Shown: positions 180 through 53,136 of the stretch, in pieces | Numbering within the stretch: the first letter of the stretch is position 1 | How the letters are laid out: each line of letters opens with the position of its first letter | Assembly: GCA_035529855.1 (NCBI GenBank) | Contig: DATKVX010000044.1 | Location: forward strand, 12,189 to 76,188 | Source: a bacterium | GTDB lineage: Bacteria > RBG-13-66-14 > B26-G2 > WVWN01 | DNA length: 64,000 nt | Reading direction: 5' to 3' | Notes under the pieces: model-generated | What the model was told of the DNA's origin: nothing | Database searches by the model: none | Seen by the model: the letters and a program-made list of their open reading frames with translations, nothing else | Program-made: the position numbers and the translations under genes

Positions 180-185
180 AATCGG

Positions 186-213
186 CGGCCTCGCGGCCGC
201 CTTCTTTCTGTGA
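186..213. terminator. GC hairpin (GGCGGCC-tcgc-GGCCGCC) followed by a TTCTTTCT run. Probably a bidirectional terminator between the upstream gene fragment and the convergent bCerS-like gene.
   Basis: Inverted repeat read directly; T-rich tract on the plus strand; the gene on the minus strand ends at 231. Confidence 0.5.
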
Positions 214-230: not shown

Positions 231-1355
231 CTAAATCTCCTTCTCGTAAATTCTGTATCTCTTATAAGGCCGCGCGCCCAACATCTTCGCCGCGCGCTTG
301 GTCATTTCGTTCTCCTCCAGCACCCACGAGAACTCGGCCTCGCGGTAGCCGAGCTCGAGCGCCGCGCGCTGGTTGGAGGCCATGAGGACGGCGTCGATGC
401 CGCGCTTGCGGTACTCCGGGCAGACGCCGAAAAGCATCACGCGGCAGCTTCTAATCTTCCGCCTGCCCGTCAGAAATTTCAGGAGGCTTAGCGGCCCCAG
501 CGAACCTCCCATCCCGGCCAAGACCTCGTTGTAGTTCGGAATCGTCACGATGAAGCCGGCCGGCTCGCCGTCGACGAAGGCGATGGGGACGAGTTCCGGG
601 ACGGCGAGCGATTTAAGACGGTCGGCGGTGCTGTCGAACTCCTCCGGCGTCGGCGGCACGAAGCCCCAGTTGTCGTCCCAGGCGCGGTTGTAGACCTCGC
701 GGATTAATCGGAGTTCGGCCGCGAAGTCGCGGAGGTTGACGCAGCGGACGGTGAGGCCCGGGTCGCGCGCCCGCGCCCGAGCCGCGACGCGCTCGAGGCG
801 CTCGAGCCGCGCCGGCGAGATGCCCAACACGAAAGCGAACAAGTCGCGCGCCTTGCGAAAGCCGTACTCCTCCGCCAACGCCGCGTAATACGGCGGGTTG
901 TGCGTCATCATAATGTACGGCGGCCGGTCGAACCCCTCCACCAGGAACGCGCACTCCTCGTTGGTAGAGGGGTTCATAGGGCCGATGAATTTGGTAAGGC
1001 CCCGGCCGCGGAGCCAGCTTGCGGCCGCGTCCCACAGCGCCGCGGCGGCCTCGCCGTCCTCCTCCGCCTCGAAGAAGCCGAAGTAGCCGCACGGCTCGCC
1101 GGCGAATTTTATGTAATCGTCGTCTTGGATGGCGGCGACGCGGCCCACGACGCGGCCCTCCCGGCGCGCGACGAAAAGCGCCCGTTCGGCGTGACGCCAG
1201 AACGGGTTCTTCGGACCGAACGTGAACTTGACGTCGCGTTTGAGGGGCGGCACCCAGTTGGCGTCGTCGCGGTACAAACGATACGGGAAAGCTATGAACT
1301 CCGCCAGGGCGCGGCGCGACGCCGCCTCGTCGACCGTTATCACGCGCGCCCCCAT
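231..1355 (-). CDS. bcerS: GNAT-fold N-acyltransferase, candidate bacterial ceramide synthase (bCerS-like)
   Basis: ORF 231..1529. The start is trimmed to the ATG at 1355 (MGARVITVDE…), which overlaps the stop of the upstream Spt-like gene by 16 nt. Acyltransferase-like core. Tight operon context with a serine-palmitoyltransferase-like alpha-oxoamine synthase and an NAD-dependent epimerase-family reductase. Confidence 0.55.
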   Translation of the reverse strand: MGARVITVDEAASRRALAEFIAFPYRLYRDDANWVPPLKRDVKFTFGPKNPFWRHAERALFVARREGRVVGRVAAIQDDDYIKFAGEPCGYFGFFEAEEDGEAAAALWDAAASWLRGRGLTKFIGPMNPSTNEECAFLVEGFDRPPYIMMTHNPPYYAALAEEYGFRKARDLFAFVLGISPARLERLERVAARARARDPGLTVRCVNLRDFAAELRLIREVYNRAWDDNWGFVPPTPEEFDSTADRLKSLAVPELVPIAFVDGEPAGFIVTIPNYNEVLAGMGGSLGPLSLLKFLTGRRKIRSCRVMLFGVCPEYRKRGIDAVLMASNQRAALELGYREAEFSWVLEENEMTKRAAKMLGARPYKRYRIYEKEI

Positions 1356-2563
1356 CCCCCGATAACGCTCATCTCGTGCCCCACCTTGTCGAACACCTCC
1401 AGAACTTTGTCCACTTGCTCGTCGGTTTGCGTCGCCATACAGCTCACGCGGATGAGCGCGCGGTTCTCCGGGACGGCCGGCGTCATAATGGGCGTCGTGA
1501 ATATCCCTGCGTCGAAGAGCTTGCGCCACATCGTGCGCGCGGTGAGGTCGTCGCCCACGATGACCGGTATGATGGGCGTCGTACTCTCGCCGGTATCGAA
1601 ACCCAGGTTCTGCAGGCCGGTGCGCATCTTATCGCCGACCGCCGCGAGCCGTTCGCGCCGCTCGGGCTCCGTTTCGATGATGTCGAGCGCGGCCAGGACG
1701 GAGGCGACGTTCGCCGGGGGAAGGCTGGCCGAGAATATCATCGACCGGGCGAAATGCTTGAGGTAATGGACGACCGGCTCCGACGCGGCGACGAAGCCGC
1801 CCACACAGGCGAAGGACTTGCTGAAGGTGCCGATTATTATGTCCACCTCGTCCTCGAGGCCGAAGTGGTCGGCGACGCCGGCGCCCCGCGAGCCGAGGAC
1901 GCCGATGCCGTGGGCGTCGTCGACCAGGACCCGCGCGCCGTATTTTTTCGCCAGCTCGACGATGGCGGGCAGGTTGCAGACGTCGCCTTCCATGCTGAAG
2001 ACGCCGTCCACCGCGATCAGGGCGCCGCCGCCGTCGGCAGGCGACTGAAGGACGCGCTCGAGGTCGTGCATGTTATTGTGGCGGAAGCGCTTCATGTGGC
2101 CGAAGCTCAACCGGCAGCCGTCGATGATGCTGGCGTGGTCGTACTTGTCGGTCACGATGACGTCGCGTTTGCCGGCCAGCGCGGAGATGGCACCCAAATT
2201 GGTCTGCATACCGGTGGAGAAGACCAGCGCCGCCTCCTTGCGGCAGAACTTGGCGAGTCTCTCCTCCAGCTCTATGTGCAGCGTGAGGGTGCCGTTCAAG
2301 AACCTCGAGCCCACGCACCCGACGCCGAACTCCCGCGTCGCCTTGATGGCCGCTTCCTTGAGCTTGGGGTGGGAGGTCAAACCCAGGTAATTGTTCGACC
2401 CCAGCATGATCATCTTGCGCCCCTCGACCATAACCTCGGGGTCCTGGCCCGATTCGATGACGTGGAAGTACGGATACACGCCGGCGGCGATCGCGGCTCG
2501 AGCCGCGGTGAACTTCTCGCACTTCTCAAATATATCCGGCCGGTATTGTCGTTGCTCGGTCAT
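1340..2563 (-). CDS. spt: Alpha-oxoamine synthase (8-amino-7-oxononanoate synthase family), PLP-dependent. Candidate serine palmitoyltransferase.
   Basis: 418-aa ORF; likely start MTEQRQYRPDIF at 2563. Characteristic AOS-family motifs (GSNNYLGL, DDAHGIGVLG, GTFSKSF with the PLP lysine). Confidence 0.7.
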   Translation of the reverse strand: MTEQRQYRPDIFEKCEKFTAARAAIAAGVYPYFHVIESGQDPEVMVEGRKMIMLGSNNYLGLTSHPKLKEAAIKATREFGVGCVGSRFLNGTLTLHIELEERLAKFCRKEAALVFSTGMQTNLGAISALAGKRDVIVTDKYDHASIIDGCRLSFGHMKRFRHNNMHDLERVLQSPADGGGALIAVDGVFSMEGDVCNLPAIVELAKKYGARVLVDDAHGIGVLGSRGAGVADHFGLEDEVDIIIGTFSKSFACVGGFVAASEPVVHYLKHFARSMIFSASLPPANVASVLAALDIIETEPERRERLAAVGDKMRTGLQNLGFDTGESTTPIIPVIVGDDLTARTMWRKLFDAGIFTTPIMTPAVPENRALIRVSCMATQTDEQVDKVLEVFDKVGHEMSVIGGWGRA

Positions 2564-2568
2564 AACGG

Positions 2569-3573
2569 TCACAACCACCCTTGACCGCGATACCACGCGG
2601 TCGTTAACTTCGCGCCTTCGGCAAAACCGACGCGAGGCGCGAAACCCAATTCCGTCTTGGCTTTACTCGCATCGCACACCCATAATTCTTCCAACATAAC
2701 GCGGGCGCGCTCGCGGTTGAGGGTAGCCACCTTTCCCGAAAGAGTAGCGGCGAGCTCCGCTATCGTCGCCGCACCGAAGAGAACCACCTTGGGGACCCGG
2801 ACCTTCCTCGTCTTCACCCCCAACGCCGCCGCGGTTTCCCGCGCGACGCCGCGCCAATCCCAGACCTCGTCGTGGGCTACGAAGTACACTTCGCCCCGGG
2901 CCCGCTCGCAGCTTCCGGCAAGGATTAGCGCCTCCACCAAATCGGTCACGTAACAAAGGCTCACGTACCGGTCGTCCCACCCCAACGCGGGCTCGACGCC
3001 CTTGTTAATAAATTTGAAGAACAAAAACATCTCGGTATCGCGGGGGCCGTAGACGGCCGAAGGCCTGAGTATAACGAAAGGCAACTCGGCGGCGCGTTTC
3101 TGCAGCGCGCGTTCGCCCCCCAGCTTGCTGCGGCCATAGTCGCTTACGGGGGCGCACTCGTCGGCTTCGCGGCGAACGCCGTCCGCCCCGCAAGGCCCCG
3201 CCGCGGCCTGGCTCGAGACGTAAACGAGAAACGGCGGCACAGGGCGCACCAAGCACGCCTCGGCCAGGTTTGCGGTCCCCTCAGCGTTAACGCGGTATAA
3301 CAGCTCGGCCTTACGCGCTTTGGTCGCGCCCGCGCAATGGTAAACCACGTCCGCCCCGACTACGGCCCGCGCGAGCGAGTCCTCGTCATCGAGGGTGCCC
3401 AACACCGGTTCGTAGTCCAGCCCGTCCAACCAGCGCCGGTCCGACGTGGGGCGGAGCAAACACCTGACGTCGGCGCCCTTGGAGAGTAGGGCCTCGACGA
3501 GGTGGCTCCCTATGAAGCCGTTGCCGCCTGTCACTAAAACTCTCAAAGTCGCGTAGCTTAAATACGAATTCAT
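2569..3573 (-). CDS. cerR: NAD-dependent epimerase/dehydratase family protein. Candidate 3-ketosphinganine/ceramide reductase (CerR-like).
   Basis: N-terminal Rossmann motif VLVTGGNGFIGSHL; 334 aa; sits immediately upstream of spt in the same operon. Confidence 0.6.
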   Translation of the reverse strand: MNSYLSYATLRVLVTGGNGFIGSHLVEALLSKGADVRCLLRPTSDRRWLDGLDYEPVLGTLDDEDSLARAVVGADVVYHCAGATKARKAELLYRVNAEGTANLAEACLVRPVPPFLVYVSSQAAAGPCGADGVRREADECAPVSDYGRSKLGGERALQKRAAELPFVILRPSAVYGPRDTEMFLFFKFINKGVEPALGWDDRYVSLCYVTDLVEALILAGSCERARGEVYFVAHDEVWDWRGVARETAAALGVKTRKVRVPKVVLFGAATIAELAATLSGKVATLNRERARVMLEELWVCDASKAKTELGFAPRVGFAEGAKLTTAWYRGQGWL

Positions 3574-3664
3574 ATATTACCAAAAACGGCACCCTATGAC
3601 AAGCATAAGGGTGGCGGCGTTTTCTTGTTGCGGGCGTCGTAATTTCAAGGTATTATAAACCGCC

Positions 3665-4264
3665 GTGGGAACGCGTTCAAAACGCCCGCGCCCTAACTTT
3701 TACAGCGCGTCTATCGTTTTCGCCGCGTGCGTGATGTGGCTGGCGTTTGCCGGCTGCCGCGCGGTTAAAGGGCCGTCGCAAATCAAGGCCGCCTCGGCCT
3801 ACCGCGCCGACCTATTCCACATTACGGAAAAAATTAACGCCTACCTCGCCGAAAATACGCCCGAGGATACGCAGCGCCGGGAGCTCCAGCAAACGGTAGG
3901 CGCGACGGCGCACGAATACGCCATGCTCGCGGCGGAGGCCGGCCCGCTCCAGGGCAAGACCGGCGACGCCGAATACGGCGAAATAGCCGCGCGGGCCGAG
4001 GACGGCGAAATCGTCGCGGGGAACCTGGCCGGCGCGTTGGCCGCCGACCCCGCCCAAAAGCCGGAGGCCGTACCGACCCTCGCCGCCGCGGTCGACGACT
4101 GGGTCGCGTATAACGACGAACTCGCCTCCCGCGGTAACGCCGACGCACCTTTCAAGCCGAATCGTTGGTGGGAAACGCCGCCGTGGCGCCGCACGCTGGG
4201 TACCGGAGGCGAGCCCGGCCTCGGCACCGAGCACGGCGAGAAAGGGGCTCCGTCGGTAGATTGA
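3665..4264 (+). CDS. Hypothetical lipoprotein
   Basis: GTG start. Signal peptide ending in the lipobox LAFAG-C. No recognisable domain. Confidence 0.5.
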   Translation: MGTRSKRPRPNFYSASIVFAACVMWLAFAGCRAVKGPSQIKAASAYRADLFHITEKINAYLAENTPEDTQRRELQQTVGATAHEYAMLAAEAGPLQGKTGDAEYGEIAARAEDGEIVAGNLAGALAADPAQKPEAVPTLAAAVDDWVAYNDELASRGNADAPFKPNRWWETPPWRRTLGTGGEPGLGTEHGEKGAPSVD

Positions 4265-4476
4265 CCGCCGCGCCGGCCCGGAAGCGACGCAGCGTGGCCA
4301 CGTATTGGTCGAAAGTACCGGGGGGCTCTTTTACTTCCACTTCCCCCATTCCTCAATAAAACGGGGTAAAGCGAATTAACGGTTAAGCCCTTACGGCCCG
4401 GCGCCGTACCGGCCTAACCGCCGGCGTTAAACATTATAAAGTATAAACGTTAACCTCTAAAACCGGTAGTGCAGGA

Positions 4477-5013
4477 ATGGGAGACCAAAGGGAAAACGGA
4501 GAAAATATGGCGCGCTTGCGCGCCAAAGTGCACCTCGAGCGAGGCCGCCACTACTTCAACGCCAACCGCTTTGCGGAGGCGTTGGCGGCACTCGAGGAAG
4601 CCATAGCGGCGGACCCCGAATTTGTACGCGCGTATACCGCCAAAGCCAACACGCTGGCCATGTTGGGACGGGCCGAGGAAGCTATCGCCATTTGCGACGA
4701 AATAATAGCGAAGAACCCTACCTTCGCGTTGGCGTATACGACCAAGGCGTCGTCGCTCCACCGCGCCGGCCGGTCGGCCGAAGCGGCCGAAAACTACCGC
4801 CGCGGCATCGACCTCGCCCCCGACGAACACTTGACCCATTACAACTTCGCATGCTTCTGGGCGTTGGAGGGCAACGAAGAAGAGTGCGCGAAATACTTGC
4901 GGCGCGCGCTCGAGCTCGAGCCCAGGTCTAAACCCAAGGCGGCCACCGACGACGACTTCGCTTCGGTGCGGGGAAAAGAGTGGTTCCAAAACCTCGTCGC
5001 TTTCGGGAGCTAA
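4477..5013 (+). CDS. TPR-repeat protein
   Basis: Several 34-aa TPR-like repeats (AEALAALEEAIAADPEF…, AYTTKASSLHRAGRSAEAAENYRRGIDLAPDE…). Confidence 0.7.
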   Translation: MGDQRENGENMARLRAKVHLERGRHYFNANRFAEALAALEEAIAADPEFVRAYTAKANTLAMLGRAEEAIAICDEIIAKNPTFALAYTTKASSLHRAGRSAEAAENYRRGIDLAPDEHLTHYNFACFWALEGNEEECAKYLRRALELEPRSKPKAATDDDFASVRGKEWFQNLVAFGS

Positions 5014-5054
5014 AGGCCGGTACGCGCCGGCCGCAGCGGCGCACGAACTAAAAG

Positions 5055-5085
5055 GAAACGCCCCTCGTCCGAGGGGCGTTTACTA
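5055..5085. terminator. Bidirectional rho-independent terminator (AAACGCCCCTCG-tcc-GAGGGGCGTTT) between convergent genes
   Basis: Perfect GC-rich inverted repeat flanked by A/T runs on both sides. Confidence 0.7.
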
Positions 5086-5108
5086 TCTTTAACGGATGTG
5101 GCGGGTTA

Positions 5109-5753
5109 TTAATTAAATAACGTCTTGACCCTACCAAGGCTGGTCGGGCTGACGGCGGGATTGCCGATCGTAACCCTCGCGACATGGCCTTGGTTCGCCA
5201 ACAGCTTGCCTGTTTCCCCGGTCGCGTTGAACACCCGGAGGCGGCCCGGCTGGTCGGCAGCGGATATGAAGGTTTTGGTGGTAGTACCCGTGGCCTTAGT
5301 CCAGGAAATTTCCATCAGCAAGTTGTTCCGGTTGTTGTAGACGAAGTTATCGGGTTCGGCGAGCGTGAACCAATCGCCTTCCTTGAGACCTTCCGGTACG
5401 GTATACTTCCCGCTGAAGACCTGGACCGGGGTTTTGAAGTCGTAGTTCTTCTTGAAGGTGTTGGTAAGCTTTTCCTTGCTGGAGTGGCACAGGATCATCT
5501 TGCAGCCTTCGAGCGCGGTCGGCGTGGCGCCGCCCGATTGGAACATAAACTCGATCCGGGCTACGCTACCCTTCTCATCTATCTCTGCCTGCAACCACAT
5601 ACACTGGAACCGCATCGCCGGGGCGGTGGTATAGAAGGGCACGGTGTGTCCCTTTTCCGGTCCACCGCCTACTTCGTGCTCGCTGCCCGTCGCAAAAACG
5701 GTCCCTGTCGTAGCCAAGCCTAACGCCAACGTAAAGAGAAGCACGTTCCTCAT
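5109..5753 (-). CDS. Secreted hypothetical protein (signal peptide)
   Basis: N-terminal signal peptide MRNVLLFTLALGLATTGTVFA. No recognisable domain. The gene and its upstream region (5754-5925) are noticeably AT-richer than the window average. Confidence 0.5.
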   Translation of the reverse strand: MRNVLLFTLALGLATTGTVFATGSEHEVGGGPEKGHTVPFYTTAPAMRFQCMWLQAEIDEKGSVARIEFMFQSGGATPTALEGCKMILCHSSKEKLTNTFKKNYDFKTPVQVFSGKYTVPEGLKEGDWFTLAEPDNFVYNNRNNLLMEISWTKATGTTTKTFISAADQPGRLRVFNATGETGKLLANQGHVARVTIGNPAVSPTSLGRVKTLFN

Positions 5754-5925
5754 CTTGTTACCTCCTCTTCGCCGATAATCGAAACGTTATTAATCGCAGT
5801 TACGAGTACCCTATATTTATAAATTAAAATGGGAAAAATATCAAGTTAAATTTTTAGCGGTACGCGCGCTTTACTTCGGCCTACTTTAACCCTATAATAA
5901 ACGGAAAACGCGAGGTAAAACCGCT

Positions 5926-6489
5926 ATGGACGTCTTCGACGTTATCGCCGACCGCCGTTCCGTAAGGAAATACCTGCCGGACCCGGTCCCGGAAAGGGTT
6001 TTAGCACGCGTCCTCGAGGCGGGCAGCCTCGCCCCTTCGGGCCACAACCGCCAACCGTGGCGCTTCGTCGTCGTCCGCGAAGAAGGCCGACGGCGCGCCC
6101 TGGCCGACGCCGCCGCTTCCCACAACGGCTTCATCGCCGAGGCTCCGGTCGTGCTCGCTTTCTTGGGGTTTCTGGCGTACGGCGGCGCGCCCGCGCCCGA
6201 CGCGCGTACCCGCGGCAGCTGGACGTGGGACATGTACGTACGCTACAACGTCGCCATCGCCGCGGCGTACGTCACGCTGGCCGCGACGGCCAAAGGGCTC
6301 GGCACCTGCTGGATAAATAACTACGACGAGGAACGGGTGCGCGCGGTTCTGAACGTCCCGGAGCAGTACGCGCTCGTTTGCCTGATGACGGCGGGCTATC
6401 CCGCCGAGGAACCGGCGGCGAAGCAACGTCTGCCCTTGGCCGAGCTCCGCTTCGACGAGGAGGTGCCGCCGGCTCGAGATGGACAATAG
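5926..6489 (+). CDS. Nitroreductase family protein
   Basis: RSVRKY…PSGHNRQPWRFVVV motif typical of the NADH/FMN nitroreductase fold. Confidence 0.8.
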   Translation: MDVFDVIADRRSVRKYLPDPVPERVLARVLEAGSLAPSGHNRQPWRFVVVREEGRRRALADAAASHNGFIAEAPVVLAFLGFLAYGGAPAPDARTRGSWTWDMYVRYNVAIAAAYVTLAATAKGLGTCWINNYDEERVRAVLNVPEQYALVCLMTAGYPAEEPAAKQRLPLAELRFDEEVPPARDGQ

Positions 6490-7648
6490 AGTCTGCATCG
6501 CCCGCTGCCCCTCCTACGGCGACGCCGACGTCGCTCGCGCCCTCGCCGAAGCCGCGGCGCCGTGGGGCGGCTTCCGCGAGTTGTTCAAACCCGGCCGGCG
6601 CGTGGTCCTTAAAGTGAACCTGCTGCGCGGCTCGCGTCCCGAGGAAGCGGTAACGACGCATCCGGCGGTCGTGAAGGCCGTGGCGGCGGCGGTGCGGGAA
6701 ACGGGCGCAACGCCCGTACTGGCCGACAGCCCGGGCTCGGGCCTTCCGTATACTAAAAGAACTCTCGAGAAGTGCTACCGCCGCTCCGGTTATTTCGGCC
6801 TCGCCGACGAGGTAGGCCTGGAGCTCAACTACGACACCACCTCGCGTGAAGCACTCTTCGACGACGGCCGCGTCGCCAAAAAGTTCAACGTCATCACGCC
6901 GGTCCTGGAGGCGGACGCGGTCGTCAACCTGTGCAAATTAAAAACCCACACCTTCACCATCCTTACCGGCGCCGTCAAGAACCTCTTCGGCGTTCTCCCC
7001 GGCTTCGATAAACCCGGTTATCACGCGCGTACCCGAACGGTGGACAACTTCGCCGATATGCTGCTCGACGTCGCGCTTTTCGTCAAACCGGTTTTTAATA
7101 TTATGGAGGCCGTGGTCGCGATGGAGGGCAACGGCCCGGGCCTGGGCGAGCCGCGGAACGTGGGCCTTATCCTGGCCGGCGCGTCGCCGCTGGCGGTGGA
7201 CGCGGCCGCGGGGGCCATAACGGCGTTGCCGCCCGAAAACCACCCGGTGCTCCGGGCGGCGGCGGCTCGAGGCGTTGAACCCAACCGGCCCGAGGACCTC
7301 GACGTCGTCGGGCCCGCGCTCGAGGCCCTGCGCATTCCCGATTGGAAATGGCCCCCCACCATCCTCACGGAGGGCGGCTTCGCCGGTTACGGGCCGTTCC
7401 AGGGGATTTTACGGACGCTGCTGCGCAACGGCCTGTCGGTTCAGCCGCGGGTGCGACGCGAGCGCTGCACCGGCTGTGGCCTGTGCCGCGAGGGCTGCCC
7501 CGTCGCCGCGATTAGCGTCATCAACGACAAATCCTATATCGACGAGAAGCTCTGCATCCGCTGCTACTGCTGCCACGAGGCCTGCGCCTACGACGCGATT
7601 CAGCTGCACCGCTCGCTGCTGCACCGGTTGGTGGGCGGGAGGGTTTAA
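6479..7648 (+). CDS. DUF362-family protein with a C-terminal 2x[4Fe-4S] ferredoxin domain
   Basis: C-terminal CTGCGLCREGCP … CIRCYCCHEAC cysteine motifs. N-terminal region resembles DUF362. Confidence 0.6.
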   Translation: MDNRVCIARCPSYGDADVARALAEAAAPWGGFRELFKPGRRVVLKVNLLRGSRPEEAVTTHPAVVKAVAAAVRETGATPVLADSPGSGLPYTKRTLEKCYRRSGYFGLADEVGLELNYDTTSREALFDDGRVAKKFNVITPVLEADAVVNLCKLKTHTFTILTGAVKNLFGVLPGFDKPGYHARTRTVDNFADMLLDVALFVKPVFNIMEAVVAMEGNGPGLGEPRNVGLILAGASPLAVDAAAGAITALPPENHPVLRAAAARGVEPNRPEDLDVVGPALEALRIPDWKWPPTILTEGGFAGYGPFQGILRTLLRNGLSVQPRVRRERCTGCGLCREGCPVAAISVINDKSYIDEKLCIRCYCCHEACAYDAIQLHRSLLHRLVGGRV

Positions 7649-7676
7649 ATACGATTTAAACACGGGAGGTTCGCCG

Positions 7677-8876
7677 ATGGGGAATCGACTGAAATGCGCT
7701 CTCATAGTTACATGCGCGGCATACGGCACGGCGTCCGCGAACGTCGGGAATTACGAGGTCCTCAACGGCCCCCCGTATTTAGCCGACGCGGAACACGCCA
7801 CCGTAGCCATGGCCCGCGAACGCGTAACGTGCGTACTCGAAAAAGACTACGTTAACGTCGAAGCAACCTTCACGTTTAAAAACGACGGCCCGGCGATGGA
7901 CGTGAAGATGTATTTCCCCCTGGGGATCGACTCGCTCGATATGCCGGTTAATAGACCGAGCAAAGTGGACTGGGAGAGATATTGGGATTTTTACGGCGTC
8001 AACGCCGAAAACCCCGTGAACGAGGTGATAATTACGAAACCTTTTGAGGAATCTGTAATATACGTGAATAATCGGGAGACGGGAGGAGGAGCGGGGGGAG
8101 GAGTAGGGCGAACGTTCCCCTGGGATACGGAACTCGTGGATTTATACAGGGGGTTTAAGGCTTCCGCCGACGGCGAGCCACTACGTATCCGCACCGTGAT
8201 GCGGTTTTCGCTGGCCGTCGAACCGACCGAAGACCCGTATTACCTCGAGCGAGGGTATACCGATATAATCATATTAACTCGGGAAATACTCGACTATTGG
8301 TCGGTACCGTTCTCTGCGGGAGCGACGCGCGTAATAACGTGCGCGTACCGCAATAAATACGATGACCCCTATGATACTAAAGAAATCGGTACGTTCACCT
8401 ACCCGGTATTCACGGGGAAGGGTTGGGCCGGGCCTATCGGCGAAGGCGAAATCGAAATCTCTTATATAACAGACGAAGCGCCCGGCGCCGTATTCTTCTC
8501 GTCTCCCGGCTTGCCCCCCGCGGTAACCTCGTATAGCGAAAGCACGACGCGATTGACGTGGAGTTTTAAGGGATTAGAACCGGAAGAAGAAGCGGCGGTC
8601 AACGTCCGCGTGGGAGGCCGAACCGGCCGCGGTACGCCGGCGGAAATGCTCGTCGAACCCGGGATATTAAAAACCTCCCTCGACGACTCCTCCGGGATCG
8701 AAGTCACAACTGCATATGGGGGAAAAAACGAATTCGCCGTATTGGAATCCCGCGGCGAATGGTGGTACGTAAAACTCAACGACGGCGCCGAGGGCTGGCT
8801 CCGCTGGCGGGAAGTGGACGCCGCCACGGGCGAGGAACATATTAACGCCGCTTTCGCTTACTACCTTACCGAATAG
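7677..8876 (+). CDS. Secreted hypothetical protein with a C-terminal bacterial SH3-like domain
   Basis: The true start is the ATG at 7677, preceded by GGGAGG. The 7275 start in the ORF track is an out-of-context extension overlapping the previous gene. Signal peptide. C-terminal SH3b-like segment (EFAVLESRGEWWYVKLNDGAEGWLRW). Confidence 0.55.
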   Translation: MGNRLKCALIVTCAAYGTASANVGNYEVLNGPPYLADAEHATVAMARERVTCVLEKDYVNVEATFTFKNDGPAMDVKMYFPLGIDSLDMPVNRPSKVDWERYWDFYGVNAENPVNEVIITKPFEESVIYVNNRETGGGAGGGVGRTFPWDTELVDLYRGFKASADGEPLRIRTVMRFSLAVEPTEDPYYLERGYTDIIILTREILDYWSVPFSAGATRVITCAYRNKYDDPYDTKEIGTFTYPVFTGKGWAGPIGEGEIEISYITDEAPGAVFFSSPGLPPAVTSYSESTTRLTWSFKGLEPEEEAAVNVRVGGRTGRGTPAEMLVEPGILKTSLDDSSGIEVTTAYGGKNEFAVLESRGEWWYVKLNDGAEGWLRWREVDAATGEEHINAAFAYYLTE

Positions 8877-8921
8877 CCCCGTACCGAAGTTGCCGCCGGC
8901 CCCGAAAAGTGGTAGAATTAA

Positions 8922-8950
8922 AATAGAAACGCCGGGCCTTGCGACCCGGC
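8922..8950 (-). terminator. Rho-independent terminator downstream of tRNA-Ala (GCCGGGtcgcaaggCCCGGC followed by GTTTCTATTTT on the minus strand)
   Basis: Hairpin and T-rich tract read on the minus strand directly after the tRNA 3' end. Confidence 0.6.
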
Positions 8951-8954
8951 GGGT

Positions 8955-9027
8955 TGGAGCAGATCGGATTCGAACCGACGGCCTCCTCCGTGCGAGGGAG
9001 GCGCTCTTCCAGCTGAGCTACTGCCCC
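8955..9027 (-). tRNA. tRNA-Ala (anticodon CGC)
   Basis: Folded by hand into a 73-nt cloverleaf: acceptor stem GGGGCAG/CTGCTCC with the G3:U70 alanine identity pair and discriminator A; anticodon loop CTCGCAC; T-arm GGTTCGAATCC. CCA is not encoded. Confidence 0.85.
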
Positions 9028-9037
9028 GTCGGCGGAT

Positions 9038-9066
9038 ATTATAAATGAAACGCCCTCGCCTGTCAA
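9038..9066 (-). promoter_or_regulatory. Consensus sigma70 promoter for tRNA-Ala: TTGACA-N17-TATAAT
   Basis: Minus-strand read is TTGACAggcgagggcgtttcattTATAAT with a 17-nt spacer. The tRNA 5' end lies about 11 nt downstream of the -10 element. Confidence 0.75.
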
Positions 9067-9076
9067 GGAGTCTGCC

Positions 9077-9721
9077 GTGGAAGTCGAGCTTATAGCGGTT
9101 ACGCCCGACGCGGAGGAGTTAATCGAGGCCGCGGCCCGGACCTGCTACGACACCGGCGACCGCGCCGGCGCCGACTCCGCCGCCAAGTTCATCCGCATGT
9201 TAATCCGCCGCGGCCACCTCTCGGTCCTCGAGCACGCCGCCGCGACCTTCCGCGTCACCGGCGTCTCGCGCGCCCTCACCCACCAGCTCGTCCGCCACCG
9301 GTTGGCCTCCTACTCCCAGCGCAGCCAGCGCTACGTCGGCGAGGCCGGCTTCCCGTACGTCACGCCGCCGTCCGTAGCGGGGAACGCCGACGGCCACCGC
9401 GCGTTCGACGACGCCGTCGAGAACGCCCGCGCCGCGTACGAGAGACTAATCGGGATGGGCGTACCCCGCGAGGACGCGCGCTTCGTCCTCCCCAACGCGA
9501 CGGCCACCGAGATAGTCATGACCGCCGATTTCCGCGAGTGGCGCCACGTACTCGCGCTCCGCGGCCACGCGTCGGCGCAGTGGGAGATACGCCGGCTGGC
9601 AATCGCCATCCTGAAAGAATTAAAGAGACAAGCGCCGGCGACTTTCGCCGACTTCGAAATCGACGAAACTAAGGAAACGATAACCGTCGTCAAGGAAAAG
9701 GGTGGTGGGAATAATGTTTAA
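9077..9721 (+). CDS. thyX: FAD-dependent thymidylate synthase ThyX
   Basis: GTG start with AAGGAG 6 nt upstream. ThyX signature RHR…SQRSQRY. 214 aa. Confidence 0.85.
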   Translation: MEVELIAVTPDAEELIEAAARTCYDTGDRAGADSAAKFIRMLIRRGHLSVLEHAAATFRVTGVSRALTHQLVRHRLASYSQRSQRYVGEAGFPYVTPPSVAGNADGHRAFDDAVENARAAYERLIGMGVPREDARFVLPNATATEIVMTADFREWRHVLALRGHASAQWEIRRLAIAILKELKRQAPATFADFEIDETKETITVVKEKGGGNNV

Positions 9722-10175
9722 ATCGAAGTGGGCCGTAGCCGCGGCGGCGCTCGCGTTGCTGGCCGCGGCCGCGGCGGCGGAGATATCCGAGGCCGACGCG
9801 CAATACTACGACGACTTCGGCGCCGCGGCCAAGCGCATCGGCAAACAGCTCGATAAACTCGGCGAACTCTTCGTCAAAGCGTCCTCCGGCAAGGATTATT
9901 CCATCGACTGCGAGGACCGCGCCGCGGAACTGGCCGACGCCTACCACTTCCTCGCGGACCGCGTGCCGCCGGCCGAAGCTATAACGGCCCAAAAGGACCT
10001 TACGGCCAGCGCCGAGCTCGGCGCCGAGGCCGCGCTGAGCCTGGCCGAATACTTCGACGCCGAGTTCGCCCACAAAAATAATAAGGCGAGCGCTCTCGAC
10101 GTCTACGAACAAGCCATCGCCAAGTACGCCGACGCCCTGGCCGCAGCCCCGCCCGAAGTGTTAAAAAACCCGTAG
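9717..10175 (+). CDS. Secreted hypothetical protein
   Basis: Signal peptide MFKSKWAVAAAALALLAAAAAA. Ala/acidic-rich. No recognisable domain. Confidence 0.45.
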   Translation, partial: FKSKWAVAAAALALLAAAAAAEISEADAQYYDDFGAAAKRIGKQLDKLGELFVKASSGKDYSIDCEDRAAELADAYHFLADRVPPAEAITAQKDLTASAELGAEAALSLAEYFDAEFAHKNNKASALDVYEQAIAKYADALAAAPPEVLKNP

Positions 10176-10203
10176 CGCCGGACCACCGACCGTCTAGCCG
10201 CCC

Positions 10204-11856
10204 GTGGCGAACGCTTTTGACGTTACCGAGCTGACTTTTACGTACCGCGGCCGGTCCCGGCCGGCCCTCTCCCACGTTACCCTCGGCCTGGAGGAAGACC
10301 GCACCCTCGGCGTCTTAGGCCATTCCGGCGCCGGCAAATCGACGCTGCTGGCGGCGCTCGCCGCCGTCGTACCCGCCGTTAAAAAGGGAACGATGAGCGG
10401 CGATGTTACTTTACGCGGCGCCTCCCTCGCCGGTAAAAAGCCCCGCGACGTCGCCGGCGACGTGGCTTTCGTCTTCGAGGACTTCGACGCCGCGCTGGTG
10501 GCAACGACGGTCGAAGACGAAGTCGCGTTTGGGCCGCGGCACCTCGGCGTACCCGCCGGGGATATAGGCGGCCGCGTCGGCGACGCGCTGGCCGCCTGCG
10601 GCCTGGCCGGCCTCGAGGCCCGGCGCGTCGAAACGCTGTCGGGCGGCCAAAAACAGCGGCTCGCCGTCGCCGCGGCGCTGGCCACCGACGCGCGCCTGCT
10701 GCTCTTCGACGAGGCCGCGACCGATTTGGACCCGGCCGGCAAGGCAACGCTGCAGGCTATTATAACGGACCTCGGCCCTCGCGGCCGTACGGCCGTCGTC
10801 GCCGACAACGAAGCGGCGCAAGCGCTCACGTGGAACGAAGTAGCGCTGCTGGGCGGAGGCGAGCTCGTCGCCCGCGGCTCCCCCCTGCGAACGCTGGCCG
10901 ACGAGGAGCTTTGCCGGCGCGCCGGCGTCGCCGCGCTAAACTTTTTGAATTATTTTGAACGACGCGGCGACGGCTTCCGCCTTCTTCCCGGGGTGGAAAT
11001 CGGGCGGTTAAAATACGACGAGCCGCCGCCCGCGGCGGGGCCGCCGGCGGTCGTCGCGGATGACCTTACGCTAACGTACGCCAGCGGCGTAACCGCCCTA
11101 TCGGGTTTTAACCTCGCGATACGCGAGGGCGACTTCGTCGCGCTCGTGGGCGAGAACGGCGGCGGTAAGACGACGTTCGCCAAAGCGGCCGCGGGTCTAC
11201 TGAGCCCGACCGCCGGCGAGGTTCTCGTCGGGGGCCGGCCGCCGACGAAGCTATCGGCGAAGCAGCGCGCTCGAGCCGTCGGCTACCTCTTCCAAAACCC
11301 GGACCACCAGATATTTCAACCGACGGTCCGCGAAGAAGTCGCCTTCGGCCCGCGCCAGCTCGGTTTACCGGGGTACGATATCGAACGCCGCGTAGCGGCC
11401 GCGGTCGCCGCGGTGGACCTGGAGGAGCGCGAGGACGAAGACCCGTTCACGATGCCCAAAGGAGACCGCCAGCGCGTCGCGTTGGCCTCCGTCCTCGCCG
11501 TGGAACCCGAAATCCTGGTGATGGACGAGCCGACGACGGGGCTCGACCGCCGCGAAGTCGCCTCACTCATGGACGCCGTTACGGCGCTCAACCGGCGCGG
11601 CACCACCGTAATCTTTATAACCCACGCCATGGACGTCGTGGCCGGCTACGCCCGGCGCGTCGCCGTCGTCGCCGGCGGCCGCGTCGCGGGCGAGGGTACG
11701 CCTCGCGAGGTCCTGGCCGACGACGAACTTTTATCGCGAGCGGGTTTGAGGCCGCCGGTGGCGGCTCGCCTCGCCCGCGACCTGGGCCTCGACGCCGTAA
11801 CGGGGGACGAGCTAACGCGGGCGCTGCGGATACCGGGCCGTCGAACCGAGATATGA
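10204..11856 (+). CDS. Fused tandem ABC ATPase, energy-coupling-factor (EcfA1-EcfA2-like) type
   Basis: Two Walker A motifs (GHSGAGKST and GENGGGKTT), two LSGGQ-like signatures (LSGGQKQR and KGDRQR), and Walker B motifs. Confidence 0.8.
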   Translation: MANAFDVTELTFTYRGRSRPALSHVTLGLEEDRTLGVLGHSGAGKSTLLAALAAVVPAVKKGTMSGDVTLRGASLAGKKPRDVAGDVAFVFEDFDAALVATTVEDEVAFGPRHLGVPAGDIGGRVGDALAACGLAGLEARRVETLSGGQKQRLAVAAALATDARLLLFDEAATDLDPAGKATLQAIITDLGPRGRTAVVADNEAAQALTWNEVALLGGGELVARGSPLRTLADEELCRRAGVAALNFLNYFERRGDGFRLLPGVEIGRLKYDEPPPAAGPPAVVADDLTLTYASGVTALSGFNLAIREGDFVALVGENGGGKTTFAKAAAGLLSPTAGEVLVGGRPPTKLSAKQRARAVGYLFQNPDHQIFQPTVREEVAFGPRQLGLPGYDIERRVAAAVAAVDLEEREDEDPFTMPKGDRQRVALASVLAVEPEILVMDEPTTGLDRREVASLMDAVTALNRRGTTVIFITHAMDVVAGYARRVAVVAGGRVAGEGTPREVLADDELLSRAGLRPPVAARLARDLGLDAVTGDELTRALRIPGRRTEI

Positions 11857-12698: not shown

Positions 12699-13988
12699 AT
12701 GGGTAAGTTTCTTAGATATTGGAAATACGTAACGGGGGCGCTTGCGGTAACATGCGGGGCCGGCCCCGCCGCGGCCCAGTACGTCCCGGCGCCATACGAT
12801 ATCGAGGAGGAGTTCGACAAAGAGTACGCCATGGACCTGGTGCAGCTCTCGTACGACCGCGACTGGGACCGCATCTGGGACGAAAACGATATCGGCGTCC
12901 GCATCGCGATGGGCAGCCTTAACGTGCGGCAATGGTTTCTGGACCAAGAGGTCAAAGTCGCCGCCGATTTTACCGACTGGTTCCGCTTCCTCTACCGCTA
13001 CGACCGCTACGAGGGGCTCGAGCCGCTGTGGGACGAACGCCAGCTAAACGAATTCGAACTCGAGTTCGGCCTGTGGCGCTGGTTCAAGTTGGGCTTGCGG
13101 ACGCAACCCACGTTCTGGAAACGTTACTCCGACGCCGGCTTCACGGCCAAGTTCCGCTACGACCGCGACCGCTACGTCGAGGTAGGCTACACCGCCATCG
13201 ACTTCGACAACAACTACTCGTTTAGGCGCTCGTCGTACGACGAGGGTTACGAGGAGATGTTCGAAGAAAGCCCCCAACGTTACGAGGCCTCCGGCTCCTG
13301 GTCGTTCCCTTGGGGTTTAAGAATCAAGGGGGAGGGTCTTTGGCGGACGCCGTCGATTAAAAACTACACCTATTTCTACGGCCAGCGGCCCAATTGGGTG
13401 CGGCGGTACGTCGAACGATACGGCTCCGTCACCGTTCGGAAGGCGCTGCCGGCGAACCTGGAGGGGTACTACCGCGGCACGACCAACTCGTGGGAAGAGA
13501 CGCGGCGCCTTACGGGCCCCCCCGCGGGCGAGGCGCAGTTGGAAGAGGACTTCGACGGCCGATTGACGCTAGGTTCCCACGGCGGCGGCGTTTACTACCA
13601 ACCGCCGGGGCGGCACCGCCTCCGCGTCGGCTTCCAGCGACGTCACCAAACGCGCCGCTTTAACTTCGGCGGCAGGCCGCTCGAAAGTTACCTTTACGAA
13701 AAAACGGAATTGGTTTATCATATACTTTGGCGTTTACGCACCTGGCGCGAGCTATACCTCGAAACCGGCTATATGGGGGAGAGGATCGACGTCGATAAAA
13801 ACCTACCCGCCGCTAAATACGCCGAAACGTGGAGTTGGTACGAGAACCGGGTACCGATTTCGCTGGAATACAAGTTCGGCGAGAACTACGCCTTTAAATT
13901 GGCCTCGGGCATCGATATAGACAAACGCGACTGGGGAGATTACTTGATTTACGATAAGGCGTACGCGTTCGTAATCGCCTGTTTCTGA
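12699..13988 (+). CDS. Outer-membrane beta-barrel-like hypothetical protein
   Basis: Signal peptide. Trp/Tyr/Arg/Asp-rich with alternating amphipathic strands. Ends in aromatic …VIACF. Confidence 0.45.
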   Translation: MGKFLRYWKYVTGALAVTCGAGPAAAQYVPAPYDIEEEFDKEYAMDLVQLSYDRDWDRIWDENDIGVRIAMGSLNVRQWFLDQEVKVAADFTDWFRFLYRYDRYEGLEPLWDERQLNEFELEFGLWRWFKLGLRTQPTFWKRYSDAGFTAKFRYDRDRYVEVGYTAIDFDNNYSFRRSSYDEGYEEMFEESPQRYEASGSWSFPWGLRIKGEGLWRTPSIKNYTYFYGQRPNWVRRYVERYGSVTVRKALPANLEGYYRGTTNSWEETRRLTGPPAGEAQLEEDFDGRLTLGSHGGGVYYQPPGRHRLRVGFQRRHQTRRFNFGGRPLESYLYEKTELVYHILWRLRTWRELYLETGYMGERIDVDKNLPAAKYAETWSWYENRVPISLEYKFGENYAFKLASGIDIDKRDWGDYLIYDKAYAFVIACF

Positions 13989-14590: not shown

Positions 14591-15946
14591 ATGGGCGCCC
14601 GTTCGGTAGCAATCGCTTTTTTAATCCTCTTAACGGCGGCCTGTTGGGCCGCGGAAGTCGAAGTATACGGCCATCTGTACGGGGCCGTAACCGACGACTT
14701 CGCGGAAGGCGACGTCGGACCCACGTCTATCCCCGAACCCGCCGCGGAAGAAAGCAGCGCCGACGATATCGTAAAGGACGGCGACCCCGCGTACAACTTC
14801 CGCTTGGAAGCGGACGTAGGCATCCGCGCCGTCTTCGACGAAAACGTAGCCGCGAACCTCGAGTTCACGTTCGACGACCGCAAGCAATCGGAATACTACC
14901 GTTACGTACTCCTCGAGCCGGAAGAAGGCGCGTATTACCTGACCGAGCAAGGGGAAAGTAAGTACGTATACGCGTCGCTGGAACAAGTCAACGTAGAGCT
15001 GAGTGACTTATGGCGCGCGACCGACGTAACGCTGGGCGGCTTCGACGTACGCTACGGCCACGGCGGGTATTACAACAACCTCGTCAACCGCATCGACCCC
15101 GTTTCCTTCGTGGCGTACCTCGACCCGTTCGGCGCGCGCGTCGGCGGCGAATTCGGGCCGGTTAAGGCTTCGTTGGACGTAGGCGCGGGGCTCGAGCACC
15201 AGGCCGTCGTCGCGGCCGATTGCCACGTGCGCAACTTCGGCCTGTTCTGCGCGACGGAGGGAAGAACGTACGACCTGAAATCGCTGTGGGATACGCACTT
15301 CGCGCCCGCCCTCCCCAAGTTCTGGCGCCAACTTTATTGGCGGGAGAAGAGGCTGGCCCCCGAACCCCGCGGGAGATTGGGGACGTTGGGGGATACGGTC
15401 CACGCCGGCGTCGAGGCGTCGTGGAAGTATTCGACGTGGGACCTCTACGCCGTCGCCGCGTACCACGTCTTCGCCGACGAGAGCGGTATGGAAAACCCGA
15501 CCGGCGGCCAGCTCGTCCAATTCTACCCCGACTTCGGCGTACGCGTAATACCGCCGCGGTTGTGGCTCCGGGGGGCCGCGCTATACGAGGCGTGGCGAGC
15601 CAACTACCACGGCACTTTCGGCGACGGCATAGATGCGGACGACTACCTGATGCTCTTCGGCGAACCGCAGCTCTTCCTGACGGAAAACCTATTCTTCGGC
15701 GTAGGGGGCCGTTACGTCAACCCGAACCGCCGCGCCGTAGACGACCCCCAAAGCTCGACCCGGGAAGACACCGTACTCAGCGTCGCTTTTATCCCCCATT
15801 TATCGTACGCCCCGAACGAGAACGTAAAAATCGACTTGAGCCACGCCGAGATATGGTGGGACCCGAGCTACGATTTAAAAACGACGGAGGGCTTCGAAGA
15901 AAACCGCGGGCACGAATTAAAACTGGAAATCGAGGCCGCTTTCTAG
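14591..15946 (+). CDS. Secreted / outer-membrane beta-barrel-like hypothetical protein
   Basis: Signal peptide. Aromatic-rich, with a C-terminal …EIEAAF. Confidence 0.4.
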   Translation: MGARSVAIAFLILLTAACWAAEVEVYGHLYGAVTDDFAEGDVGPTSIPEPAAEESSADDIVKDGDPAYNFRLEADVGIRAVFDENVAANLEFTFDDRKQSEYYRYVLLEPEEGAYYLTEQGESKYVYASLEQVNVELSDLWRATDVTLGGFDVRYGHGGYYNNLVNRIDPVSFVAYLDPFGARVGGEFGPVKASLDVGAGLEHQAVVAADCHVRNFGLFCATEGRTYDLKSLWDTHFAPALPKFWRQLYWREKRLAPEPRGRLGTLGDTVHAGVEASWKYSTWDLYAVAAYHVFADESGMENPTGGQLVQFYPDFGVRVIPPRLWLRGAALYEAWRANYHGTFGDGIDADDYLMLFGEPQLFLTENLFFGVGGRYVNPNRRAVDDPQSSTREDTVLSVAFIPHLSYAPNENVKIDLSHAEIWWDPSYDLKTTEGFEENRGHELKLEIEAAF

Positions 15947-24126: not shown

Positions 24127-24293
24127 ATACCGTTCACCAACCCCGGCCCTCGTATTTCGTCATTAAATAAAACTTTTTACCCCCCTTGGCTCTTCCGTAT
24201 AATTTAAAGCGGTCGCCTTTTTTTCAACTTATCCCCTCGCGGATATTATATTATAGTCTACGTCAAAAAACCACCAAAAAGGGGGCCGCGGTT

Positions 24294-25034
24294 ATGAAAC
24301 GTTCGGACTGGTTACTATATCTGGCCGTCGCGCTGGTCGCGTTGTCTACCCTCGTTTACGTAATCCACTTCGCCATCTTCCGCGACGCCCACCACATATT
24401 CATCTATCTCGTCGGCGACATCGCCTTCGTCCCGATAGAGGTCCTGCTCGTAACCGTCATCATACACCGGCTGCTCGGCCAACGCGAGAAGCGCGCCCTG
24501 CTCAATAAATTGAATATGGTCATCGGCGCCTTCTTCAACGAAGTCGGAACCGACCTCCTGAAACGTATTATCGCCCTCGACGAAGACTTCGACGATGTCC
24601 GCCAAAACTTGCTCTTGAACAAGGAATGGACGCATCGCGACTTCGTCCAGGCCGGTAAACGGATGGCCGAATACGACTACACCATCGAAGTCGGGCCGGA
24701 AGCCCTGGACGAGCTTCGGGACTTCCTCCTCGCCAAAAGGGAATTCCTGCTAAGGTTGCTGGAGAACCCCAACCTGTTGGAACACGAATCGTTCACCGAT
24801 TTGCTGTGGGCCGTAACCCACCTCGCCGAGGAACTGGCGCACCGCGACGGGGCGTACGGCCTGCCGGCCGCGGACTACGAACACCTCGCCGGCGACATCA
24901 GGCGGGCGTACGTGCGGATCATCGGCGAGTGGCTCCAATATATGGAGCACCTCCAGCGGAAGTACCCGTACCTGTTCTCGCTCGCGGTCCGGACCAACCC
25001 CTTCGACCCGGCGGCCTCGGCCGAAATTAAATAA
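24294..25034 (+). CDS. Hypothetical membrane-anchored protein
   Basis: ATG at 24294 with an AAAGGGGG ribosome-binding site. Two N-terminal TM helices followed by a helical soluble domain. Confidence 0.45.
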   Translation: MKRSDWLLYLAVALVALSTLVYVIHFAIFRDAHHIFIYLVGDIAFVPIEVLLVTVIIHRLLGQREKRALLNKLNMVIGAFFNEVGTDLLKRIIALDEDFDDVRQNLLLNKEWTHRDFVQAGKRMAEYDYTIEVGPEALDELRDFLLAKREFLLRLLENPNLLEHESFTDLLWAVTHLAEELAHRDGAYGLPAADYEHLAGDIRRAYVRIIGEWLQYMEHLQRKYPYLFSLAVRTNPFDPAASAEIK

Positions 25035-25064: not shown

Positions 25065-25307
25065 CTACCCGCCGCCGGCCGCCGACCTCTTGCGGATAAC
25101 TATCTTGTACCCCTCGTCGGCCTCCTCCAACGAGACCAGCTCGTGGCCGGTCACGCGGCACCAATTCGGGAAGTCGTTCTCCACGCCCGGGTCGTCGGCC
25201 AGGATCGTAACCGTCTCGCCCTCCGCGACGCCTCCTATCGCCTCCGCCGCCCGGGCGATGGGCACCGGGCAGTAGAGCCCTATGCAATCCACGGTTTTAT
25301 CGGCCAT
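25065..25307 (-). CDS. tusA: TusA-like sulfurtransferase
   Basis: Conserved CPVP motif within DCIGLYCPVPIARA; 80 aa. Confidence 0.8.
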   Translation of the reverse strand: MADKTVDCIGLYCPVPIARAAEAIGGVAEGETVTILADDPGVENDFPNWCRVTGHELVSLEEADEGYKIVIRKRSAAGGG

Positions 25308-25346
25308 ACCGAACCCCGCTATCTCCGGCTGCGCCGGCGCCGACGT

Positions 25347-25874
25347 TTAAATGAAAAGATGTACGTCGCTCTCGAGCGCCTCGGCCAGAAAGGTCGCCAC
25401 GCCCGCGAATTCCGTTACCTCCGGCCGCACGTTGGCGCGCGGGGTACCCAGCGCCTCGAGCGACGTCGTGCACGCGATGAACCGTACGCCCAAACTCGCG
25501 CCCAGCTTGATAAGCTCGTCGAGGTTCGCCATACGCGAGTCGCGCATCAGCCGCGCCGTCAACCGCCGGCCCAAACCCCAAAACGAGAACCGGCTCGGGT
25601 TCATGTACTTGCCGCCGCCCGGGTTAAGATAAGCGAACGCCCGCCGGAGGGCTCGGGCGCCGAAGAGGCCGATACGCTTCGGCTCCTCCCCGGGCGCGGG
25701 CGCCGGCGCCACGCCGTCCTTGCGGACGGCGTTCAGGCCGAAGAAGGTGCAGAAGACGGCCACCTCCATACCCATCGACGCGCCGCCGACGGCGATATTC
25801 ATACAGGCCAGCGCGCGGTCCAGCTCCCCGGCGCACAACACCAACGCCATCTTTCTCTTCTTCTCGTCGACCAT
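25347..25874 (-). CDS. DsrE/DsrF-like family protein
   Basis: Start trimmed to MVDEKKRKMALVLCAG. DsrE-like fold motifs. Adjacent to tusA, as is typical for sulfur-relay pairs. Confidence 0.6.
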   Translation of the reverse strand: MVDEKKRKMALVLCAGELDRALACMNIAVGGASMGMEVAVFCTFFGLNAVRKDGVAPAPAPGEEPKRIGLFGARALRRAFAYLNPGGGKYMNPSRFSFWGLGRRLTARLMRDSRMANLDELIKLGASLGVRFIACTTSLEALGTPRANVRPEVTEFAGVATFLAEALESDVHLFI

Positions 25875-45237: not shown

Positions 45238-45250
45238 CGGCCGGCCCGGA

Positions 45251-53135: not shown

Positions 53136-53136
53136 A

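Follow-up and report, generated by a model that had tools for sequence, protein, structure and literature searches.

A complete three-gene operon at positions 231-3573 of a 64,000-nucleotide stretch of contig DATKVX010000044.1 (hereafter the window) is predicted to let a member of the Zixibacteria build a ceramide-type lipid de novo, a reading to which a probability of roughly 85% is assigned on the basis of homology and synteny. The three genes encode an extended short-chain dehydrogenase/reductase (SDR), an alpha-oxoamine synthase (AOS) and a tandem-GNAT N-acyltransferase. An earlier note on this DNA had described them as a full ceramide synthesis cluster, and the description stands: the block holds three minus-strand open reading frames (ORFs) with three Pfam domain types, homologous to the serine palmitoyltransferase Spt, the reductase CerR and the acyltransferase bCerS. 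The same three enzyme families occur in Caulobacter crescentus as Spt (CC_1162/CCNA_01220), CerR (CC_1164/CCNA_01222) and bCerS (CC_1154/CCNA_01212), and the chemistry proposed for the Caulobacter pathway is the same as that proposed here.

Family membership of the three predicted enzymes

The AOS contains the motif GTFSKSF, whose lysine, Lys249, aligns with the pyridoxal 5'-phosphate (PLP)-binding Lys244 of Sphingobacterium multivorum Spt. Spt comes first among models, among structures and in the tree, which supports the Spt-like identity originally read from this motif. The best NCBIfam model is NF047600 (Spt, CFB) with 530.9 bits, followed by the BioF/Kbl subfamily (430 bits), BioF (404 bits), Kbl (398 bits) and CqsA (244 bits). 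Among PDB entries, S. multivorum Spt is the best match (412.6 bits, about 49% identity), ahead of ThAOS, the Thermus BioF/Kbl enzyme (307 bits; 44% identical), Sphingomonas-type Spt (284-299 bits), cysteate acyltransferase (271 bits), Kbl (263 bits), BioF (233 bits) and CqsA (157 bits).

The residues of the active site point in the same direction. In Sphingobacterium Spt, PLP and serine are contacted by Asn52, Gly80, Ser81, His138, Ser185, Asp210, Ala212, His213, Thr241, Ser243, Lys244, Ser273 and Ala274 (PMC10196870), and Arg367 is the conserved arginine of AOS enzymes, Arg376 in SulA numbering (PMC9304779). All 13 listed contact residues, plus R82 and R367, are kept in the window AOS (Sphingobacterium numbering), with K249, H143, D215, H218 and R372 aligned to K244, H138, D210, H213 and R367. 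The departures from Sphingobacterium Spt are isoleucine at Met271 (a main-chain contact), Val84 for Ala79 and Met119 for Phe114. G85-S86-R87 and Ala279 of the window AOS correspond to G80-S81-R82 and Ala274 of the Sphingobacterium enzyme; this Gly-Ser-Arg loop and alanine are common to the three Spt references and the 36 cluster-linked AOS proteins without exception, whereas BioF, Kbl and ThAOS differ. The SulA/CapB enzyme of sulfonolipid (capnine) synthesis shares the AOS fold and performs analogous chemistry (235-271 bits), but SulA enzymes have a lysine (Lys281) where Spt and the window AOS carry alanine (PMC9304779).

In a distance-based neighbor-joining tree of a small reference set with 200 bootstraps, BioF, Kbl and ThAOS were split from all other sequences in 172 of the replicates (86%). 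The window AOS fell inside a clade with Sphingobacterium Spt and the AOS proteins linked to the same GNAT, weakly apart from proteobacterial Spt (127/200 bootstraps). By these comparisons the enzyme is Spt-like and is placed in a bacterial Spt subgroup other than that of Caulobacter. The earlier note had proposed comparison with BioF and Kbl as a check on this identity; no grouping with them was seen (86% bootstrap; Spt signature residues), and no biotin genes lie near the operon in either the window or the corresponding public locus.

The GNAT is placed in the bCerS/YghO family by full-length homology. In a tblastn search of a 7.3-Gb database of plasmid records, several of which are actually chromosomes or chromosome fragments, it matched Escherichia coli YghO with 38.3% identity over residues 5-374 (99% coverage, 7e-50; 241 bits in pairwise comparison) and a Sphingomonas parapaucimobilis N-acetyltransferase with 33.7% identity (3e-73 pairwise). 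The family is well conserved, with a length of about 370 amino acids (aa), and the window protein is collinear end to end with its E. coli and Sphingomonas homologs, sharing 30 invariant columns in the alignment. Membership of an unrelated acetyltransferase family, which had been raised beforehand as a possible objection, is contradicted by these homologies to YghO (38%) and the Sphingomonas GNAT (34%). The proposed GNAT fold is likewise borne out by a Pfam match to Acetyltransf_1 (4.5e-9, residues 233-360) and by an AlphaFold2 model with a tandem-GNAT fold (predicted local distance difference test score, pLDDT, 89.8). The top Foldseek matches of this model are tandem-GNAT proteins, including mycothiol synthase MshD and glucosamine N-acetyltransferase, with E-values down to 4e-15 and at most 16% identity. 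No significant PDB sequence match to the GNAT was found. There was no NCBIfam match either, which carries no weight because NCBIfam contains no model for the GNAT or YghO. The connection to Caulobacter is provided by published equivalences, given as "aca: CC_1154, yghO ECD_02850" and "epi: CC_1164, ECD_02852" (PMC9386255), together with the identification of CerS and CerR as CCNA_01212 and CCNA_01222 (PMC10865984).

The SDR was correctly described as a member of the NAD-dependent epimerase/dehydratase family: its Pfam Epimerase match (7.7e-36) is accompanied by two intact SDR motifs, GGNGFIG (GxxGxxG) at residue 16 and YGRSK (YxxxK) at residue 146, the latter also aligned in the E. coli and Sphingomonas SDR orthologs. 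Over the full length it is 31% identical to the cluster reductase of E. coli (1e-40), 30% to that of Sphingomonas (4e-27) and 38% to that of Streptomyces. When two complete E. coli chromosomes and an 11.85-Mb Nonomuraea record were searched, its single best match in each sat beside the GNAT gene; the best E. coli match, about 2 kb from yghO, is the named CerR ortholog. In reverse searches with the cluster reductases, the window SDR was the only match within the window. NCBIfam ranks HpnA first, followed by OleD and SdmB (lipid 3-keto reductases), all below cutoff, a profile similar to that of the named CerR orthologs; HpnA is also the best sub-threshold model for four of the five reference-cluster reductases, including both named CerR orthologs. 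CerR and HpnA cannot be told apart by sequence alone, and it is mainly synteny and the best-hit tests that carry the assignment of the SDR as CerR-like and a putative 3-keto reductase.

Caulobacter CerR has been described as a periplasmic, peripheral-membrane protein (PMC11087976). No signal peptide is evident by eye in the window SDR, whose Rossmann motif begins near residue 12, and the E. coli and Sphingomonas orthologs likewise begin directly at this motif. CerR has also been likened to NDUFA9 (PMC11087976), a likeness not reproduced at the sequence level, as NDUFA9 structures were absent among the PDB sequence matches of the SDR at E <= 1e-5.

Operon layout, conserved synteny and known systems

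The genes and their putative control signals are listed in Table 1. The SDR start is uncertain, with TTG 3546 possible and GTG 3534 chosen by gene callers, and the AOS has an alternative start at GTG 2596. Translational coupling had been proposed from two gene overlaps. The overlap of 16 nucleotides (nt) between AOS and GNAT, ATGGGGGCGCGCGTGA, is present when the GNAT is read from its ATG. Most GNAT homologs start four residues downstream, which corresponds to GTG 1343 and would give a protein of 370 aa and an overlap of 4 nt (GTGA). The second overlap, of about 6 nt between SDR and AOS, proved to be a 5-nt spacer between the SDR stop and the AOS ATG (TGA ccgtt ATG), on which gene callers agree on public contigs.

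Table 1. Coordinates of the predicted operon and its putative control signals in the window
Feature	Positions	Strand	Remarks
Three-gene block	231-3573	-	SDR, AOS and tandem-GNAT, tightly packed
Extended SDR, CerR-like (putative 3-keto reductase)	2569-3573	-	334 aa from ATG 3573; Pfam Epimerase 7.7e-36
AOS, Spt-like (serine palmitoyltransferase type)	1340-2563	-	407 aa from ATG; Pfam Aminotran_1_2 1.2e-64
PLP-binding lysine codon, Lys249, motif GTFSKSF	1817-1819	-	Aligned to Lys244 of Sphingobacterium Spt
Tandem-GNAT N-acyltransferase, bCerS-like, YghO/CC_1154 family	231-1355	-	374 aa from ATG
Promoter-like site, TTGAAC + 17-nt spacer + TATAAT	3652-3680	-	About 80 nt upstream of the first gene
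G+C-rich hairpin, likely bidirectional terminator closing the operon	184-201	.	T-runs on both strands

The promoter-like site agrees with the sigma-70 consensus at 10 of 12 positions in a consensus scan and is to be read as a consensus match only. The hairpin has a stem of 7 bp, all G-C, with a T-run after it (201-184). Public contigs with identical genes show a convergent gene immediately downstream and flanking genes that are unrelated to the trio. Given the convergent neighbor, the promoter-like site and the terminator, the three genes appear as a discrete unit, and their tight packing between one promoter-like site and one terminator suggests co-expression and translational coupling.

Conservation of the trio was examined by a GNAT scan over one genome per GTDB species, which yielded at least 600 genomes with the GNAT; the following counts are from the best 80. 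A Spt-like AOS lies within 10 kb of the GNAT in 54 of these loci and is adjacent to it (300 bp or less) in 47, while an SDR is found at 46 and both partners at 43. The order SDR-AOS-GNAT, as in the window, is the commonest (24/80), and a divergent SDR followed by AOS-GNAT accounts for a further 12. The best 80 span Zixibacteria, Nitrospirota, Acidobacteriota, Ignavibacteria, Bacteroidota, Planctomycetota, Gemmatimonadota, Verrucomicrobiota, Elusimicrobiota, WOR-3, Desulfuromonadaceae and other deltaproteobacteria-type lineages, among others; the complete trio is seen again in Nitrospirota, Acidobacteriota, Ignavibacteria, Planctomycetota, Gemmatimonadota, Verrucomicrobiota and further groups. 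Twenty of the 80 loci also have a gene of the PAP2_3 type, mostly no more than about 1 kb from the GNAT. This family, which we take to hold sphingomyelin/IPC-synthase-like enzymes, provides a candidate ceramide head-group transferase, and its linkage fits a ceramide product.

Other loci show further combinations. PAP2_3 or PAP2 genes, often beside the bCerS-like GNAT or, in Bacteroides finegoldii, beside the CerR-like SDR, were located at 7114-8055 of L007, 8311-9237 of L008 and 20990-21955 of L093, in addition to the 20 among loci L010-L089. On a plasmid of Streptomyces sp. NBC_01001 (L092, 10051-11298), the genes are arranged AOS-GNAT-SDR with a condensation-domain gene after them, which hints at extra tailoring of a ceramide-like product in actinomycetes.

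Comparison with better-known systems places the operon at the compact end of a range of arrangements. The Caulobacter map comprises CC_1164 (cerR), CC_1163 (acpR), CC_1162 (spt), CC_1156/CC_1155 (lptF2/lptG2) and CC_1154 (cerS) (PMC11324152), so that its genes are spread over about 10 genes, whereas the window trio is one contiguous operon. Unlike the Caulobacter locus, the window operon has no gene for the acyl carrier protein (ACP) AcpR, for the acyl-ACP synthetase AasR, for lptF/lptG paralogs or for head-group addition nearby, and it is not assigned to the five-gene proteobacterial ("Rhodobacteria") subtype with AcpR and AasR. The Sphingomonas locus (reductase, ACP, Spt, ATP-binding protein, lptF, lptG, desaturase and GNAT, in this order) mirrors the Caulobacter map, and its AOS matches the crystallized S. 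paucimobilis Spt over the full length with 907 bits. The E. coli locus runs yghO, fatty acyl-AMP ligase, epimerase, ACP, AOS, lptG and lptF. The closest characterized enzyme, the acyl-CoA-dependent Spt of S. multivorum (PDB 3a2b, 8guh), resembles that of the window in having no partner ACP gene. In Bacteroides, by contrast with the single operon of the window, the three genes are dispersed (PMC11334938).

The E. coli PN43 record NZ_MG591698.1 (L091) contains a full sphingolipid-type cluster at 3346-11125, next to glcC. The same yghO/spt cluster is carried by BL21(DE3) (PMC9386255); with a spt/yghO cluster of its own, BL21 is ill suited to tests of spt operons from other organisms.

The trio had been presented as patchily distributed and notable for an uncultured lineage, an emphasis that is toned down here. 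With at least 600 GTDB species carrying the GNAT and many phyla already flagged in the literature, its distribution is neither very patchy nor surprising. Predicted Spt-like AOS genes co-localized with bCerS and CerR homologs have been reported, as in the window, from uncultured lineages among Black Sea metagenome-assembled genomes (MAGs) of 38 phyla, bringing the total to 40 (PMC11334938). Zixibacteria are unnamed in the text and examined supplements of that study, and no title or abstract tying Zixibacteria to sphingolipids was found in a literature search at title and abstract level. The pathway is defined in Caulobacter and its wide spread in uncultured phyla is known; the window operon is a further case and leaves the picture of bacterial sphingolipid synthesis unchanged. 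If the reading is true, Candidatus Zixiibacteriota joins the bacteria able to make ceramides. It would do so with a very compact, ACP-free three-gene operon convenient for heterologous reconstitution, which could help settle the order of acylation and reduction as well as the substrate range of bCerS and CerR.

Proposed pathway and competing interpretations

By homology, the Spt-like PLP enzyme would join a long-chain acyl-CoA to an amino acid, in all likelihood L-serine, releasing CO2 and giving a 3-keto long-chain base (3-ketosphinganine). The YghO/bCerS-family tandem-GNAT would add a second fatty acyl chain to the amino group, and the CerR-like SDR would reduce the C3 ketone with NAD(P)H to yield dihydroceramide. 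Whether acylation precedes reduction is debated even in Caulobacter (PMC11087976, PMC11324152). The substrates, products, chain lengths, lipid fate and envelope role given here are inferred.

With regard to the acyl donor, no ACP or AMP-ligase Pfam family was recorded for the called genes within 10 kb on either side of the operon, several of which have no Pfam match. As no ACP or acyl-ACP-synthetase gene is present, the operon would be of the compact acyl-CoA-dependent type, as with Bacteroidota and deltaproteobacterial Spt. A short segment of the GNAT also differs between the two kinds of clusters. Window-type proteins read YRKRGID at residues of about 314-321 (columns of about 345-355 in alignment A2), whereas YghO and the Sphingomonas ortholog, whose clusters include a dedicated ACP gene, show a three-residue insertion there (YQFSRIGPV and LQASRMAGQ). 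In our own reading, the RKRGID stretch resembles the GNAT CoA-binding motif, and the difference between window-type and ACP-linked GNATs may mark a switch of the bCerS acyl donor.

Several points weigh against a ceramide product or against the assignments on which it depends. The AOS scores 530.9 bits against an equivalog cutoff of 640 for the Spt-CFB model, which was built for a narrower taxon. Identity to characterized or genetically defined proteins is moderate: Sphingobacterium Spt reaches 49%, YghO 38% and the E. coli CerR ortholog 31%. HpnA, at 33%, resembles the SDR no less than the proteobacterial CerR orthologs do, the SDR tree contained one outgroup, and the link to Caulobacter CCNA_01212 and CCNA_01222 runs through literature-named orthologs in E. 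coli and Sphingomonas. The neighborhood adds little: neither the window nor the public locus L001 (21 kb) contains a PAP2 homolog, and no transport gene lies near the operon in either. A ceramide kinase or glycosyltransferase close to the operon, which the earlier note had suggested looking for, was not found in the window, where the sole GT2 gene is unrelated and 26 kb away. In addition, bacterial Spt also takes alanine and glycine (PMC10196870), while anoxic waters are rich in 1-deoxyceramides (PMC11334938).

In one alternative, considered improbable, the same three enzyme types make a non-canonical sphingoid-like aminolipid, such as an alanine-derived 1-deoxy(dihydro)ceramide, a glycine-derived base or a cysteate-derived sulfonolipid of the capnine type. 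Spt enzymes use L-Ala and Gly less efficiently (PMC10196870), 1-deoxyceramides dominate the sphingolipids of the euxinic Black Sea and have been credited to anaerobes with Spt-like genes (PMC11334938), and the window AOS falls under the Spt equivalog cutoff and has Val84 and Met119 in place of Ala79 and Phe114 near the substrate pocket. However, the reported serine and PLP side-chain contacts of the solved Spt are kept. A cysteate-derived sulfonolipid is disfavored by Ala279, which occupies the position of the SulA-specific lysine (PMC9304779), and by the score of the cysteate acyltransferase structure (271 versus 412 bits for Spt), and nothing specific points to a preference for alanine. A broader proposal, rather doubtful at present, is that Zixibacteria make sphingolipids via this minimal acyl-CoA-type operon, perhaps as 1-deoxy or "headless" ceramides that feed the unassigned environmental sphingolipid pool; non-canonical products are conceivable because the operon of this lineage comes without a head-group gene.

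AOS enzymes also produce quorum-sensing alpha-hydroxyketones. It is conceivable on this ground, though very improbable, that chemistry similar to CqsA/CAI-1 leads here to a diffusible signal or natural product, an N-acyl amino-ketone or amino-alcohol, rather than to a bulk membrane lipid. The CqsA model score of 244 bits and the condensation-domain gene that follows the trio in Streptomyces would agree with such a product. CqsA is nevertheless much weaker than Spt among PDB matches (157 versus 412 bits), and both the PAP2_3 linkage in 20 of the 80 loci and the lptF/lptG paralogs in Sphingomonas and E. coli point to envelope lipids. That the AOS is a housekeeping BioF/Kbl-type enzyme beside an unrelated acetyltransferase and a sugar epimerase is scarcely credible and was rejected: the strong sub-threshold model scores (398-430 bits), the 44% identity to the Thermus enzyme and the sugar-epimerase names that top the Pfam and NCBIfam matches of the SDR are outweighed by a lead of about 100 bits for Spt models and structures, a Gly-Ser-Arg and Ala274 signature absent from BioF, Kbl and ThAOS, the bootstrap split of 86%, the lack of bio or tdh genes nearby, the joint occurrence of the three genes in many phyla, and the homology of the GNAT and the SDR to genetically defined ceramide genes. 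A ceramide-type lipid remains the favored product of the operon.

Host genome and other genes of the window

Zixibacteria are an uncultured phylum of sediment and soil, largely anaerobic. A protein 100% identical to the GNAT is encoded in public MAGs. The species-representative genomes closest to the window by GNAT are Candidatus Zixiibacteriota MAGs (78-82% identity), and nine of the 11 neighboring window genes tested have collinear matches, at 59-89% amino acid identity, in one or both of the two closest MAGs. From these collinear matches, the window is attributed to Zixibacteria (Candidatus Zixiibacteriota), to which the contig is assigned by sequence similarity.

The operon had also been linked to outer-membrane biology through many outer-membrane-protein genes thought to lie in the window. 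No such family was detected by Pfam in the 40 other window proteins, eight of which have no Pfam match. Sizeable Pfam-negative ORFs (E <= 0.01) with high third-position GC include those at 3665-4264, 5109-5753, 12699-13988, 14591-15946, 24186-25034, 25143-25910 and 62688-63386.

Two other regions of the window deserve mention. On the plus strand, a GatB_N-domain protein of 647 aa with a large insertion (33482-35425), GatE-like, and a GatD-like protein with Asparaginase and GatD_N domains (36337-37740) look like an archaeal-type GatDE tRNA-dependent amidotransferase pair on a bacterial contig; the small ORF between them (35450-36289) has a weak match to the C-terminal part of squalene-hopene cyclase. 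On the minus strand, positions 43336-54684 encode an isocitrate/isopropylmalate dehydrogenase, an aconitase, a short citrate-synthase C-terminal protein (258 aa), a CoA-ligase subunit and an ATP-grasp_2 subunit. This block is a set of the ATP-citrate-lyase or citryl-CoA type, suggestive of a reverse tricarboxylic acid cycle, and a WOR-3 genome (L006) has a very similar one immediately downstream of its AOS-GNAT pair. Past the start of the window, downstream of the operon, the public contig (L001, 12347-15868) encodes a CCG/Fer4_8 (HdrD-like) protein, DsrC and a class-V aminotransferase, which suggest a sulfur-related energy metabolism in this organism.

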